Below, piece by piece: positions 465-6,312 of a stretch of 6,312 nt of DNA. A program made the position numbers and the translations under genes. The notes under the pieces are model-generated. The model was not told the DNA's origin and made no database searches. It saw only the letters and a program-made list of their open reading frames with translations. This DNA comes from a virus (Duplodnaviria > Heunggongvirae > Uroviricota > Caudoviricetes): the IMG/VR virus record IMGVR_UViG_2667527806_000009; one strand, 5' to 3'. Positions within the stretch are counted from its first letter, which is position 1. Each line of letters starts with the position of its first letter.

Positions 465-490
465 AACAAAAAACCCGCCGAAGCGGGTTT
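465..490 (-). terminator. Rho-independent terminator at the 3' end of the hok transcript
   Basis: Minus-strand hairpin CCCGC-TTCG-GCGGG (plus 474-487) followed by a U-tract (minus strand GGGTTTTTTGTT), 70-90 nt downstream of the hok stop codon. Confidence 0.7.
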
Positions 491-557
491 AGTGCGGGTG
501 CGTTGAGGATGCCTGACACATGAGAGGTGGCGAGGGATTTCTCCCCCGCCTGGTCTC

Positions 558-713
558 TTACTCCTCAGGTTCGTAAGCTGTGAAGACAGCGACCTCCGTC
601 TGGCCGGTTCGGATTCGTACCTCGCAGAGGTCTTTCCTCGTTACCAGTGCCGTCACTATGACGGTTAAACAGATGACGATCAGGGCGATTAACATCGCCT
701 TTTGCTGCTTCAT
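558..713 (-). CDS. hok: Hok/Gef family type I toxin, 51 aa (HokD/RelF-like)
   Basis: Translation MKQQKAMLIALIVICLTVIVTALVTRKDLCEVRIRTGQTEVAVFTAYEPEE has the Hok family layout: one N-terminal transmembrane helix and the conserved C-terminal periplasmic segment with Cys. AAGGAG lies about 9 nt upstream of this ATG. Confidence 0.85.
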   Translation of the reverse strand: MKQQKAMLIALIVICLTVIVTALVTRKDLCEVRIRTGQTEVAVFTAYEPEE

Positions 714-770
714 AGCCTGCTTCTCCTTGCCTTTCGGCACGTAAGAGGCTAACCTACATTTGTGAGACAT
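558..770 (-). CDS. mok-like upstream reading frame (in-frame N-terminal extension of hok, 70 aa)
   Basis: ATG at 768-770 within the conserved hok leader, at the position where the mok frame starts in characterised hok/sok loci. Here it is in frame with hok. Whether it is translated as a separate modulator is not determinable from sequence. Confidence 0.35.
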   Translation of the reverse strand: MSHKCRLASYVPKGKEKQAMKQQKAMLIALIVICLTVIVTALVTRKDLCEVRIRTGQTEVAVFTAYEPEE

Positions 771-895
771 AGATTGGGCCTCAGATTAATGTTAAGCGTC
801 TTGCAGGACGCGTAATGTTAACTGGGGCTTTTCTCTGTCTGCCTTACAGTGGCATGCCCGAGGCAGACAGCCTCAAGCACCCGCAGCAATCTTAC
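714..895 (-). promoter_or_regulatory. hok mRNA 5' leader (sok target, translation-control stem-loops)
   Basis: Minus-strand leader begins near GGGTGCTTGAGGC and contains paired segments (plus 835-843 CTGTCTGCC with 862-870 GGCAGACAG). A diverged second copy lies at 2868-3014. Confidence 0.6.
760..838 (+). ncRNA. Putative Sok-like antisense RNA (copy A)
   Basis: Plus-strand segment antisense to the hok leader and mok start, with a candidate promoter (TTGCCT, 17 nt, TAACCT at 727-755) and ending near GGGGCTTTTCTCT. Boundaries are approximate and by analogy to plasmid R1 hok/sok. Confidence 0.35.
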
Positions 896-1051
896 CGATA
901 CCGATAAGAAAACGCTATTTTTTATTGCCAGCACCTTCTATCCAGGCTAATTTATCTGCGTCAGAACGGCGCAATGCGCTCGCCTGAGATACGTTTACTT
1001 GCCATGGTAACAACAGGTAACGGCAATTGCTGTTTCTGTTTTGTTTCCTTC

Positions 1052-2786: not shown

Positions 2787-2856
2787 CCGCCCTTTCGGGC
2801 GGTCTCCTGATGATTTGAGGGTGCAGAAATCCCTCCGGTTAAGGATTAAATTTTTA
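2787..2856. repeat. 70-bp structured direct repeat, copy 1 (abuts the N gap)
   Basis: Identical over all 70 nt to 3816-3885. Contains a GNRA-type hairpin (minus strand CCGCCC-GAAA-GGGCGG) and a second stem GAGGG..CCCTC. May extend into the N run. Confidence 0.9.
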
Positions 2857-2866
2857 NNNNNNNNNN
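2857..2866. other. Run of 10 N (unresolved sequence or scaffold gap)
   Basis: Ten ambiguous bases lie between the 70-bp repeat and the hok-B leader, where a hok-type CDS of about 180 bp would be expected. Confidence 0.95.
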
Positions 2867-2867
2867 T

Positions 2868-3014
2868 GTAAGAGGCTAACCTACATGTGCAAAGCATGAA
2901 ATTGGCCTCAGATTAATGTTAAGCGTCTTGCCGGACGCGTAATGTTAACTGGGGCTTTTCTCTATCTGCCTTTTGGTGTTCATGCCTGAAGCAGATAGCC
3001 TCAAGCACCCGCAG
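2868..3014 (-). promoter_or_regulatory. Second hok-type leader (hok-B) with mok-like start, truncated by the gap
   Basis: About 147 bp alignable to 741-886 at roughly 85-90% identity by eye. A mok-like ATG at 2895-2897 (minus) opens a frame (MLCTCRLASY...) that runs into the N gap. Confidence 0.6.
2887..2965 (+). ncRNA. Putative Sok-like antisense RNA (copy B)
   Basis: Homologous to the copy-A antisense segment, ending near GGGGCTTTTCTCT; the expected -35 region would fall in the N gap. Boundaries approximate. Confidence 0.3.
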
Positions 3015-3067
3015 TCATTCTACTTACCTCGCCAATATGAAATCAATCAGAAAGGTGCCCCATAAAA

Positions 3068-3754
3068 TCACTCCTTCTCTTCTTTACCGTAGTGGAGTTG
3101 ACCAATTTTGATAAGAGGGCGTCCCTGAGATTTGCGGTGTAGATTGGTATCGCGCAGAGAATACACACAGCCACAATATTCCTGCTGATAGAATTTTTCG
3201 CGCTTGCTGATTTCAATCATACGGGACGAGCCGCCCTGCTTGCGCCAGTTATAATCCCAGTACACCATGCCCGGATAATGCGCGACGGCTCGCCGCCCAC
3301 AGTCGTTAACCTGCTGCATATTTTTCCAGCGTGAAATGCCCAGTGAACTGCTGATCACACTGAAACCATTTTCAGCGGCGTACAGCGCTGTCCGCTCAAA
3401 ACGCATGTCAAAACACATGGTGCAACGGATCCCTCGTTCGGGCTCCCATTCCATTCCTTTGGCTCGTTCAAACCAGTTGTCTGTGTCGTAATCAGCATCA
3501 ATAAACGGCACGCCGTGTTGTTCAGCAAAGCGAATATTCTCATCCTTACGAATTAAATACTCTTTCTGAGGATGAATGTTCGGGTTGTAGAAAAAGATGG
3601 TGTAGTCGATTTCCGAGGCCTGAAGCGCCTCCATCACCTCACCGGAACATGGAGCACAGCAAGAGTGCAGTAGTAGTTTGTTTGCCCCGTTTGGGAGCTC
3701 CAATTTGGGCCGTTTGAAATCAGCAACTGTCATAAATATGTTTATTGAGGTCAT
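3068..3754 (-). CDS. queH: Epoxyqueuosine reductase QueH family protein (DUF208), 228 aa
   Basis: Translation carries the QueH/DUF208 signature Cys motifs: [11 protein letters not shown] near the N-terminus, [14 protein letters not shown], and C-terminal EYCGCVYS. No clear SD before the first ATG, so the exact start is uncertain. Confidence 0.8.
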
Positions 3755-3815
3755 AAAAATATCAAAGAGTGTAGCATTAGAACGGGGCTATCGGAAACAG
3801 ATGTGTGACTGCTCC

Positions 3816-3885
3816 CCGCCCTTTCGGGCGGTCTCCTGATGATTTGAGGGTGCAGAAATCCCTCCGGTTAAGGATTAAATTTTTA
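3816..3885. repeat. 70-bp structured direct repeat, copy 2
   Basis: Identical to 2787-2856, same orientation, offset 1029 bp. Sits in the intergenic space between the 3902 stop and the queH start. Confidence 0.9.
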
Positions 3886-3901
3886 ACAGTGCTAAATTTA
3901 A

Positions 3902-4258
3902 TTATTCAGTTCTGGATTTTGTCGCCCTGCGTATCCGCGCTTTCGCGTTACGCTCAATCTGTATCAGCTTTTCTATATTTCTCCGCCTTTCCTGTTCCTC
4001 CTGGCGCAATAGCCTTACATCATCTGCCAGTCTGGTTTCTCTTTTTGCCACAGAGAGCATCCAGTCAAACGGCTCCACAACCGCACCGCAGATTTTACAG
4101 CGGACCTGACGCTCTTTTTCGTCAACCCGTACAGAGGCGTGATGGCAATATGGTCTTTCCGATGGCTTATAAAGAAAATTAACCTGATTACGAGGGTCAT
4201 CCTCTTTTATCGGAAATAAAACGATATTGCTTAACTCATCTTCTGGTTTTATTTCCAT
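3902..4258 (-). CDS. Small putative zinc-ribbon protein, 118 aa (137 aa if started at 4315)
   Basis: CHH...CKICG Cys/His cluster and a basic, coiled-coil-like C-terminus. Preferred start is the ATG at 4256-4258, preceded by AAGGAG at 6-nt spacing; the alternative ATG at 4313-4315 abuts the upstream stop (TGAATG). Confidence 0.55.
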   Translation of the reverse strand: MEIKPEDELSNIVLFPIKEDDPRNQVNFLYKPSERPYCHHASVRVDEKERQVRCKICGAVVEPFDWMLSVAKRETRLADDVRLLRQEEQERRRNIEKLIQIERNAKARIRRATKSRTE

Positions 4259-4315
4259 GCTCCTCTCCTTTGATGCGAATGCCAGCGGTAATTGAAGCCT
4301 GATAGCTAATTTCAT

Positions 4316-4738
4316 TCACAGTATCGCCTCCTGAAAATTACCCTGATAGAAAGCCAGTACACGCTGCATAGCTTCGCTCTTCCGGCACTCGCGACAGATT
4401 ATATTCAGGCGCCTGTCGTAGCGGCGTATTTCTCCGTCAGGTAATGACCAGATAAGGTCCGGATCAACAACAACCGGTTTCCTCACCTTTACTCTCGAGA
4501 GTTTTTTGCGGGCGCTTTGCCAGTCCTTGCGAGCCTGTTCAGACGGGAATAAGCCGTAGCCAGAATTATATACATCACCACTTGCGACCAGTTCTATGCA
4601 TAAGCGACCGACAGACGCACGACTGATACCTGTTTCATCGGACAACTGCCGAATCGTGACCCGACCGTCCTGATGCACGAGTTCCACAATTCGCGTCTTC
4701 AGTTCTTCCCGCTGTTCGGGAGTAAAAGGTTTCGCCAT
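4316..4738 (-). CDS. Putative winged-helix/HTH DNA-binding protein with C-terminal CxxC, 140 aa
   Basis: AGGAGG upstream of the ATG. HTH-like segment (TIRQLSDETGISRASVGRL) and C-terminal CRECRK. No named family recognised. Confidence 0.7.
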   Translation of the reverse strand: MAKPFTPEQREELKTRIVELVHQDGRVTIRQLSDETGISRASVGRLCIELVASGDVYNSGYGLFPSEQARKDWQSARKKLSRVKVRKPVVVDPDLIWSLPDGEIRRYDRRLNIICRECRKSEAMQRVLAFYQGNFQEAIL

Positions 4739-4752
4739 AAATCCTCCTGAAA

Positions 4753-5499
4753 CTACTTAACAACCCTCGAATGGCTAACATTCGGACGCCAGCTCTCCCA
4801 GTTAAAATTCACCCAGCGCCCGCCGTTCATGACCATGCGATCCATCACCCGCTCGCCGAGAAGTGTATTCATCGCTGCATGGTTAATATTTGTCAGCATC
4901 CCCACACCGCGTAACGATGCCGTCCGGCGATCAACAATCTGGTTCAGTACCACCTGCTCGTTTTTCGTATCCCGCTGCATGCCAATTTCATCCAGGACCA
5001 GCAGGTCAACACCACAAAGCTCCTGTAAAAATTTTTCACCGGATTTGCCGTTGTCGTAGCTCTCATGCAACACGCTCATGACATCGGACACGGTGACGAT
5101 AATCACGCTACGCCCCTTCGCCATCAGCCGGTTGCCAATCGCGGCTGCAAGATGATTTTTTCCGGTGCCGGGCTTACCGCTGAACACAAAATTCGTACAG
5201 CCTGTCATCAGTTCGTCAGCTATGGATTTCGCCTGACTCAGTGCATGTCGCTGACCGTCGTTCTGCGCCCGGTAATTCGCAAACGAACACTTCCGGTGCA
5301 ACGGCTGGATGCCGGAGCGGTTCAGGATTTTTTCCACCCGCAACTGACGATTCAGGCGGTTGATCTCCTCGCAACGTTTCTGGCCTTCAGCAAGTTGCCA
5401 CTCGCGCCACTCCGCAACCGTTCTGAATGGGGCGGTTACATGTGGTGGGGTCAGTCTGCGGATACGCTCCAGAACGCCTCCTGTCGCAATATTTTTCAT
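4753..5499 (-). CDS. DnaC/IstB-like AAA+ helicase loader (phage replication protein P-type), 248 aa
   Basis: Walker A GKPGTGKNHLAAAIG and Walker B LLVLDEIG; positioned directly after the putative initiator, as in lambdoid replication modules with a DnaC-like loader (Rac ydaU/ydaV arrangement). Confidence 0.85.
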   Translation of the reverse strand: MKNIATGGVLERIRRLTPPHVTAPFRTVAEWREWQLAEGQKRCEEINRLNRQLRVEKILNRSGIQPLHRKCSFANYRAQNDGQRHALSQAKSIADELMTGCTNFVFSGKPGTGKNHLAAAIGNRLMAKGRSVIIVTVSDVMSVLHESYDNGKSGEKFLQELCGVDLLVLDEIGMQRDTKNEQVVLNQIVDRRTASLRGVGMLTNINHAAMNTLLGERVMDRMVMNGGRWVNFNWESWRPNVSHSRVVK

Positions 5500-5505
5500 G
5501 GTCTG

Positions 5506-6144
5506 TTACCCCCTGAAGCCTGGCGGGATCGCACTGTCCGGCAACGAGACGGTGTTAACCTGTCGGAGCAACGTCTCAGGCCGAACACCTTTCGGCGCGA
5601 ACAGGCCCTGGTATTCATTGGCGATGCTGTGTCGAATCACCTGCTCAGGTGTAAAACCCTGCTGACGGAATTTTTCCAGTTCCCGTATCGCCCCGTTAGC
5701 GCCCAGCTCCGTTCGAATCGGTTTTCGCAATGCCTGCCTGAACTGGACCCACTCATGCCAGAGTGTTTCTGACAACCAGTCGGGCAGATCAACTGACAAC
5801 GGGTCAAATTTTTTCTGGCGAACAGCCCCACCGATAACCAGAATTCCCTGCTCGGTGTGCCTTGCGATATCACTGCGCCGCAAGACACATATCCCGGTTT
5901 CAACAGCACCGATTTTGAGCAGTGATTTCTGTCGCGGAGAATTTCGGTCAAGCTCGATCCCACACCGGACACCGTTCCTGTCAGTCACGACGATATCAAT
6001 CCGCCCTCCGCAACCGTCACCACGCTCTGGCACCGGATACTCACGACAGACATCCAGGCCAGCAGCCTGCAACGCAACCACCGCAGAATTACAAAATTCC
6101 GCTGCAGTACCGCCAGATAATCTCCCCTCAAGCACTCCAGCCAC
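5506..6144 (-). CDS. Putative phage replication initiation protein (O-like/YdaU-type), 212 aa
   Basis: GTG start; it is the first ATG/GTG/TTG in a frame open back to 6289. Function inferred from its position upstream of the DnaC-like loader (6-nt gap) and a helical C-terminal domain; family not confirmed. Confidence 0.55.
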   Translation of the reverse strand: MAGVLEGRLSGGTAAEFCNSAVVALQAAGLDVCREYPVPERGDGCGGRIDIVVTDRNGVRCGIELDRNSPRQKSLLKIGAVETGICVLRRSDIARHTEQGILVIGGAVRQKKFDPLSVDLPDWLSETLWHEWVQFRQALRKPIRTELGANGAIRELEKFRQQGFTPEQVIRHSIANEYQGLFAPKGVRPETLLRQVNTVSLPDSAIPPGFRG

Positions 6145-6189
6145 AAAATCCCGAAACTCCCTTCCGGAAGGGAAGGGTTTGGGATGGGT

Positions 6190-6225
6190 TAGATCTGTTT
6201 TTAGATCTTTATCTGTATCTTTATT
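6190..6225. repeat. Cluster of short direct repeats (AGATCT x2, ATCTGT x2, ATCTTTAT x2)
   Basis: TTAGATCTGTTTTTAGATCTTTATCTGTATCTTTATT in the upstream region of the replication gene; function unknown (possible protein-binding sites). Confidence 0.3.
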
Positions 6226-6278
6226 AGTTGCCTTTGTGTTGGCATCTAGACTGGCCCCCTGAATCTCCAGACAACCAG

Positions 6279-6298
6279 TATCACTTATTTAAGTGATA
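6279..6298. promoter_or_regulatory. Operator-like inverted repeat (candidate CI/Cro-type repressor site)
   Basis: TATCACTTA-TT-TAAGTGATA: 9-bp perfect inverted arms around a 2-bp centre. TATCAC is the half-site core of lambda operators. Lies upstream of the replication operon at the window edge. Confidence 0.45.
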
Positions 6299-6312
6299 GT
6301 CTTAATACTAGT

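Follow-up and report, generated by a model that had tools for sequence, protein, structure and literature searches.

The two hok-type sequences of the window, which is the whole 6,312-nt stretch of viral DNA that we analysed (IMG/VR record IMGVR_UViG_2667527806_000009), are called here copy A and copy B. We consider it very probable that both are leaders of prophage hok mRNAs, that a base pair of their long 5' hairpin has been kept through a matched double change, and that copy B came to its present place from another prophage through scaffolding. The two copies are paralogous alleles of two prophage lineages, and not the products of a duplication at this site followed by divergence there.

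All the recognisable genes of the window lie on the minus strand and code for a YdaV-like ATPase, a DUF977 protein, a 118-aa protein, QueH, a DUF4014 protein, an HNH protein, a DUF551 protein and a Hok/Gef protein; they are part of a lambdoid, Rac-like prophage. The Rfam model RF01794 ('sok'; gathering score 59) matches the window twice, each time on the minus strand: at 708-882 for copy A, with 118.1 bits, and at 2844-3010 for copy B, with 92.2 bits, the 3' end of the model entering a run of N in the latter case and being poorly aligned there. Weak Rfam matches at 468-555 and 981-1089 (isrK, rsmX, STnc30 and others) were rejected, being below their gathering scores and driven by terminators. 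In copy A the hok-type mRNA is complete, running from leader to terminator (468-885, minus strand), as supported by the Rfam match, by the terminator itself (471-490, minus strand) and by the z-score of -8.2 of its predicted fold. According to the list of open reading frames, it contains a hok toxin ORF of 51 aa (558-713, minus strand; Pfam PF01848, 82.9 bits for a cut-off of 22) and, in frame with it, a mok-type ORF of 70 aa (558-770, minus strand). On the same strand, the 5' arm of the inner stem, CUGUCUGCCU, occupies 861-870 and the 3' arm, AGGCAGACAG, 835-844, the covarying base G at 868 being paired with C at 837. The tac element UGCGGGUGCUUGAGG was placed at 871-885 (minus strand) by the predicted folds: it pairs with fbi when the full-length mRNA is folded, with ucb when the leader is folded alone, and with the sequence immediately downstream of it in the metastable hairpin. 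The fbi element of the 3' UTR was located at 493-508 (minus strand) by the fbi scan and the full-length fold. Every testable defining feature of the hok/sok family is present in locus A.

Copy B corresponds to the initial ~146 nt of the leader of a hok-type mRNA (2867-3013, minus strand), with an MFE fold like that of A. The original prediction had taken it for a hok-type leader, and its Rfam score, well above the gathering score, bears this out. Inside these 146 nt the hok/sok features are present: tac, the 5' hairpin, ucb, the Sok-complementary region, the Shine-Dalgarno (SD) sequence of mok, the mok ATG (2897-2895) and dcb. The arms of its inner stem, both on the minus strand, are CUAUCUGCUU at 2989-2998 and AGGCAGAUAG at 2962-2971, and the covarying A at 2996 (T on the plus strand) pairs with U at 2964 (A on the plus strand). 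Within the window, copy B is without the hok ORF, the fbi element and the sok -35, and it stops at a run of ten N (2857-2866), at the place expected for the sok -35, the SD of hok and its ORF. Its leader is 100% identical to those of the intact hok loci L003, L137, L013 and L014; where leaders identical to B occur elsewhere, they are followed by a 51-aa Hok, and the NCBI PGAP annotation names the intact B-type toxin 'HokD'. A promoter-like site for hok mRNA B (TTGATT, 18 nt, TAGAAT; 3017-3046, minus strand) was returned by the promoter scan and places the predicted transcription start at ~3010-3013. Beyond this site lies queH, the gene of an epoxyqueuosine reductase (3068-3733, minus strand; Pfam PF02677, 220 bits), which naturally lies next to the B-type hok locus on its upstream side, a Hok/Gef ORF being found after queH in 10 of 10 genomic contexts. 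The queH gene is in itself a prophage cargo carried directly upstream of B-type hok, and the exact QueH protein occurs in 1448 blocks of the collections.

The global alignment of 741-886 with 2868-3014 gave 130 identities over 148 columns (87.8%), within the 85-90% that had been estimated by eye, and the repeat search resolved the two copies into two ungapped blocks of 90% and 84% identity. The strings proposed as pairing arms, CTGTCTGCC at 835-843 with GGCAGACAG at 862-870 in A and CTATCTGCC at 2962-2970 with GCAGATAG at 2991-2998 in B, had been read and placed correctly, and the changes G837 to A2964 and C868 to T2996 lie opposite each other in the hairpin. Read on the minus strand, which is that of the hok mRNA, A has a G-C pair here and B an A-U pair. 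The ninth pair of the stem, which on the plus strand as originally written appears in B as A opposite C, is not lost: on the minus strand it is U·G, because the C-to-U change at alignment column 25 faces G45. The pairing is thus kept, as had been claimed, since the double change preserves a real and conserved helix. Of the 'compensatory substitutions' that had been announced, one true double change stands; the plural does not, the other differences in the stem being single changes that stay paired, namely C-G to U·G at column 25 and, in the alternative hairpin, U·G to U-A at column 28.

With two sequences, such a change has little statistical weight by itself: when the same 19 substitutions were placed at random on the 47-pair fold of A, at least one compensatory double change appeared in 32% of the trials, and this test was not significant. 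It was therefore replaced by a broken-pair test and by counts at the level of the family. The 47 family-conserved pairs are those of the long 5' hairpin, the metastable 5' hairpin, the ucb/SD-mok helix, the inserted hairpin and the SD-mok/dcb stem. The 19 A/B substitutions leave every one of these pairs, a set derived from an alignment that contains A and B themselves, unbroken, an outcome that random placement reaches with P = 0.0002 over the whole leader and P = 0.004 over its first 61 nt. All the pairs of the long and of the metastable hairpin are intact in both copies, and so are the nine of nine ucb/SD-mok pairs and the five of five SD-mok/dcb pairs.

The predicted folds indicate where this pair belongs. 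The first 66 nt of either leader form the same long hairpin (z = -3.3 for A and -3.6 for B), made of an outer stem in which GGG.GCUU pairs with AAGCCCC and of an inner stem of 10 pairs. When the leaders of ~145 nt are folded on their own (z = -4.2 for A and -3.3 for B), the MFE structures of both combine the long 5' hairpin, a hairpin in the Sok region and the SD-mok/dcb stem, with tac and ucb paired at the base of the long hairpin. In the full-length MFE fold of mRNA A (468-885), nt 1-15 of tac pair with the fbi sequence CCUCAACGCACCCGCA, ucb (GCCCCAG) covers the SD of mok (CUGAGGC) and the inner stem is kept, so that the prediction matches the closed form described in the literature. The intact B-type mRNA of L003, taken from a complete genome, is predicted to fold in the same way over its full length (z = -9.5), with the tac/fbi fold-back, the ucb/SD-mok helix and the inner stem. 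The R1 numbering was transferred through the IncFII hok locus with the help of the positions G4/C5/U6 and A70/G71/C72 (PMC9841398), and by this mapping the covarying pair, located in the inner portion of the 5' hairpin, is the homologue of R1 U14-A62.

The claim that selection acts on the structure of the RNA finds its support in the covariation of the family, measured by pair counts and a G statistic. The hok loci were collected from GTDB genomes and IMG/VR and reduced to 88 distinct leaders, with identities of 67-100%, from Escherichia, Shigella, Kluyvera, Citrobacter, Photorhabdus, Erwinia, Pantoea and others. The pair formed by alignment columns 18 and 51 is A-U in 65 of the 88 leaders, G·U in 9, U-A in 6 and G-C in 5, and it is unpaired in 3. 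These columns are mutually each other's best covarying partner and rank 17th among 3240 pairs of variable columns by the APC-corrected G statistic, a rank to be read for leaders that are related to one another and recombine. The U-A state belongs to the Erwinia/Pantoea clade and to the R1-type plasmid hok; the G-C state is limited to five leaders of one clade and so probably reflects a single event on the A lineage. The G·U variant of L081 and the A×C variants of L103, L066 and L011 may be evolutionary intermediates or recombinants, two origins that the flanking sequence is too conserved to distinguish.

RNAalifold, applied to the 88 leaders, did not return the stem of the original prediction and chose in its place the metastable 5' hairpin together with ucb/SD-mok. 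Since this fold and the stem are mutually exclusive, both structures were scored explicitly, and both are supported, as expected for hok. In the long 5' hairpin, 96.6% of the cells are paired; shifting the 3' partners by 1-3 columns lowers this figure to 30-54%. Three pairs of this hairpin show double changes, and four standard pair types occur at 18/51. For the metastable hairpin with ucb/SD-mok, 97.7% of the cells are paired and seven pairs show double changes, four of them in the ucb/SD-mok helix across the family; the metastable hairpin alone (columns 6-16 with 23-33) is 98.1% paired and passes from U-A to C-G in 14 leaders. The U-to-C change of the Photorhabdus tac is matched both in its metastable partner and in fbi (an A/G change). 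The ungapped fbi scan worked for the E. coli prophage copies and for some Photorhabdus loci. With divergent loci it failed, as the 430 nt extracted were not long enough and the scan took no account of bulges. In the metastable hairpin column 18 is a loop position, and column 51 takes part in the long hairpin only, so that the double change reports specifically on the long hairpin.

Some members of the family have, in contrast to A and B, the look of decaying copies. In L006 (E. coli ECMA0423, CP178302.1 1947610-1949162) an intact-looking Hok ORF follows a degraded leader in which tac is lost and the stem is broken, and in L092, L133 and L044 the hok coding sequence has unrelated DNA upstream. 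For copy B, the original contrast with a decaying pseudogene goes further than a leader cut at the N run can carry within the window.

The antisense RNAs were placed by homology with the sokW misc_RNA of phage 933W: the predicted Sok-A would extend over ~762-832 and the predicted Sok-B over ~2889-2959, both on the plus strand. By this homology the covarying pair (837/868 in A and 2964/2996 in B) falls outside both spans, so that the 'sok target' label first attached to it has to be withdrawn. The plus strand on which the stem was first written has to be given up as well: the wobbles of the stem are frequent and its G·U pairs would be A×C on the plus strand, which designates the minus-strand hok mRNA, and not Sok, as the selected molecule. 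RF01794 itself matches the sense strand of the hok mRNA up to the hok start codon, and it therefore marks the hok leader and not the antisense strand or the extent of Sok. The consensus promoter scan of the window returned the hok-B promoter-like site and nothing for hok-A or either sok, and the sok promoters consequently rest on homology and on reading by eye. The putative promoter of Sok-A would combine a -35 TTGCCT (727-732) with a -10 TAACCT (750-755) and resembles that of the R1-type locus; for Sok-B, a putative -10 TAACCT is seen at 2877-2882, and the -35 would fall at 2854-2859, in the junction and the N run. As to the hok-A promoter region (887-915, minus strand), its -10 reads TAAGAT after a CCGATA-CCGATA duplication, most relatives having TAGAAT, and this upstream sequence is 100% conserved among the S. 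flexneri genomes.

Two further observations concern the Sok-complementary region. An extra hairpin of ~20 nt (GCGUC-CUGCAA-GACGC) is present on the minus strand at 775-813 in A and 2902-2940 in B; neither the Rfam consensus nor the leaders of the hokC-like, Photorhabdus and Erwinia loci have it, G-C to A-U and G·U variants occur in its stem, and it brings the length of Sok to ~71 nt. Variation is concentrated in the hairpin of the mok start codon, the complement of the Sok 5' tail (762-790 in A, 2889-2917 in B; columns 111-136). Among 46 distinct E. coli prophage leaders these columns have a mean entropy of 0.61, with 15 of the 26 variable, against at most 0.17 in the stems, and most of the differences between A and B fall there. 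Such variation may insulate co-resident hok/sok systems from cross-talk.

The original prediction implied that copy B is a second locus of the same prophage, a view that the comparison with complete genomes makes improbable, as these put A and B in different prophages ~440 kb apart. Positions 1-2856 of the window are 100% identical to one colinear prophage of the complete S. flexneri genomes L152, L154, L155 and L158, and positions 3816-6312 (99.9%) continue directly in this same prophage, which in the four genomes is without the queH/hokB segment. Positions 2867-3540 are 100% identical to L013 and L014, a different locus of the same S. flexneri genomes, where the B-type sequence continues into an intact hok, and positions 2867-4305 are 99.8% identical to the queH prophage of FDAARGOS_944 (L137). 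An intact hok likewise comes immediately after queH in L140 (CP182555.1 883087-889752; L150 at 1322619-1330837). An exact direct repeat of 70 nt, intergenic and common to both prophage types, occurs at 2787-2856 and at 3816-3885, and its two copies bracket the N run and the 949 nt of the hokB leader and queH; in the complete S. flexneri genomes this element is single, both copies of the window mapping to L152 3925-3994. The junction at the N run was not found in 5,426 complete E. coli genomes, the GTDB representatives, IMG/VR or the JGI metagenomes. The exact QueH protein lies on contigs of less than 2 kb in 812 of the 1448 collection blocks, which suggests that the segment commonly assembles as a short contig bounded by repeats; this is as expected for a segment limited by the hok repeat on one side and by the 70-nt element and the shared 118-aa gene on the other. 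In all likelihood the window is a chimeric scaffold and copy B owes its place to a scaffold join.

Against this scaffold join, copy B could be taken for a real truncated remnant. Recombination at the 70-nt repeat would have brought queH into the A prophage together with 146 nt of hok leader, the sok coding region among them, and the ten N would stand for genuine nucleotides; the leader so inserted would be devoid of toxin and might still give rise to Sok. For this reading it can be said that the right-hand junction shows no seam and runs through the 70-nt repeat, in the manner of homologous recombination, that lambdoid prophages are mosaic, and that the promoter-like site of hok, all of the Sok-complementary region and the sok -10 are retained in B. 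This reading nevertheless has to account for the absence of its junction from all the collections named above and for the gene of the 118-aa protein being contiguous with that of DUF4014 in all ten of the complete or near-complete genomes in which the exact DUF4014 protein occurs; moreover, the break coincides with the N run, at the edge of a sequence repeated among the hok copies, where short-read assemblies break. We therefore judge such a remnant unlikely, and the more specific proposal that B is a genuine toxin-less leader still making Sok-B, an orphan antitoxin within the A prophage, distinctly improbable. Were it true, the orphan Sok-B could silence the hok of a rival queH-type prophage, whose leader is 100% identical, and would exert an anti-addiction or cross-immunity function between co-resident prophages.

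Other objections bear not on the origin of copy B but on the meaning of its matched change. This change might be a coincidence, or might have hitch-hiked in the shuffling of alleles, and would then say nothing of selection on RNA structure: random placement of the 19 substitutions on the 47-pair fold produces a double change in about a third of the trials, both changes are transitions, and the mismatched A×C and wobble variants that exist could be recombinants. The family speaks against this, as only 3 of 88 leaders are unpaired at 18/51, three Watson-Crick types are found there, including the transversion pair U-A of the Erwinia/Pantoea clade and of the R1-type plasmid hok, each of the two columns has the other as its strongest partner, and not one conserved pair is broken between A and B; coincidence is thus very improbable. 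It is more improbable still, to the point of being nearly negligible, that the inverted repeat is constrained on the plus strand or as DNA, as a part of the Sok terminator or as a protein-binding palindrome, and not in the hok mRNA. The repeat does begin 3 nt past the predicted 3' end of Sok (GGGGCUUUU, ending at 832 in A and at 2959 in B), and Sok transcripts reading through this end would contain it. On the other side, the leaders carry U·G at 24-46 (51 leaders), 21-48 (10) and 26-44 (16) and G·U at 18-51 (9), wobbles of the minus strand that would all be A×C mismatches on the plus strand; on the plus strand the hairpin is not followed by a U tract, and the same bases join alternative, covarying pairings of the mRNA. 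The kept pair is best understood as one of the hok mRNA.

Among known systems, the closest to A is the hokW/mokW/sokW locus of the Stx2 phage 933W and the Sakai prophage Sp5, annotated in the GenBank record of 933W, which belongs to the same family and likewise to a lambdoid prophage (92.8% identity over 400 nt). Its layout is also the same, with a hok of 51 aa that mok overlaps in frame and with sok as an antisense RNA of ~71 nt. The 933W leader has the A-U pair of the B type, from which A differs by its rarer G-C variant; the Hok C-terminus reads ...FTAYEPEE in A and ...FVDYESEK in 933W, and the mok-start/Sok 5'-tail region and the genomic neighbours also differ. Experimentally, hokW-sokW is a toxin-antitoxin system of type I which depends on RNase III and Hfq and aids phage release, and the protein identity between the Hok of R1 and HokW, to which Hok-A is closely homologous, is only 44% (PMC8621323). 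The toxicity of Hok and its neutralisation by Sok have been demonstrated experimentally for relatives of the present copies, namely hokW-sokW (PMC8621323) and R1 hok/sok (PMC9841398). In the chromosome of K-12, the hok loci are published as inactive (PMC1635323), whereas every element of locus A is intact. The chromosomal hok loci of E. coli include hokD/relF in Qin and hokC/gef, among others; the hokC-like leaders (L015-L022) can be aligned with the copies along their full length and preserve their helices.

The hok/sok system (parB) of plasmid R1 presents the same order of elements as the prophage copies, that is tac, the long 5' hairpin, ucb, the Sok target, SD-mok, dcb, hok and fbi. The apical part of its hairpin is much longer than in the prophage copies, which have, unlike R1, the extra hairpin of ~20 nt in the Sok region. 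The mok ORF is in frame with hok here, unlike that of R1, where mok is in a different frame from hok. A blastn search of locus A against plasmids returned mostly plasmid-borne loci annotated 'hokD', divergent plasmid loci being matched over a conserved core of 47 nt only, and the R1-type (IncFII) hok locus was obtained by a protein search. Gultyaev, Franch and Gerdes (J Mol Biol 1997; RNA 2000) and Steif and Meyer (RNA Biol 2012) are said to have described coupled covariations in the alternative conformations of the hok mRNA, and coupled covariations in favour of alternative conformations were recovered in our set of leaders.

The model that we propose combines these observations. Both copies would be 5' leaders of hok-family type I toxin mRNAs of the hokW/hokD kind, carried on the minus strand by lambdoid, Rac-like prophages. 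The inner helix would be present in the closed form of the mRNA, in which tac is paired with fbi and ucb lies over the Shine-Dalgarno sequence of mok, and would persist in the open form, for which the leader-only fold serves as a proxy of the 3'-trimmed mRNA and in which tac would pair with ucb across the base of the helix. According to the published model, the change of the closed form into the open one would free the mok SD and expose the Sok target. With the roles of the helices taken from published work on hok/sok, the inner helix would act as a fixed scaffold that holds tac and ucb side by side, so that selection would keep its pairing, as G-C in the A lineage and as A-U in B and most relatives. 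Copy B would be the start of a queH-adjacent hok locus from another prophage and not a second locus of the A prophage, its segment most likely having been spliced in by scaffolding at the shared 70-nt repeat, with the ten N as a gap.

In conclusion, our observations indicate that, the window being probably a chimeric scaffold, 'two hok leaders in one prophage' are not to be read as a real tandem, and they remind annotators that the Rfam model named 'sok' matches the strand of the hok mRNA and not the antisense strand. They also illustrate that the reading of a raw sequence by eye can detect a real structure-preserving substitution, and they add no new biology to the family. The structure-preserving change of copy B is real, but the covariation of hok and the existence of prophage hok/sok systems were already known, covariation in hok mRNAs having reportedly been published since 1997. 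Copy B thus joins the relatives of a textbook RNA, the hok mRNA, whose alternative folds are all maintained by covariation.
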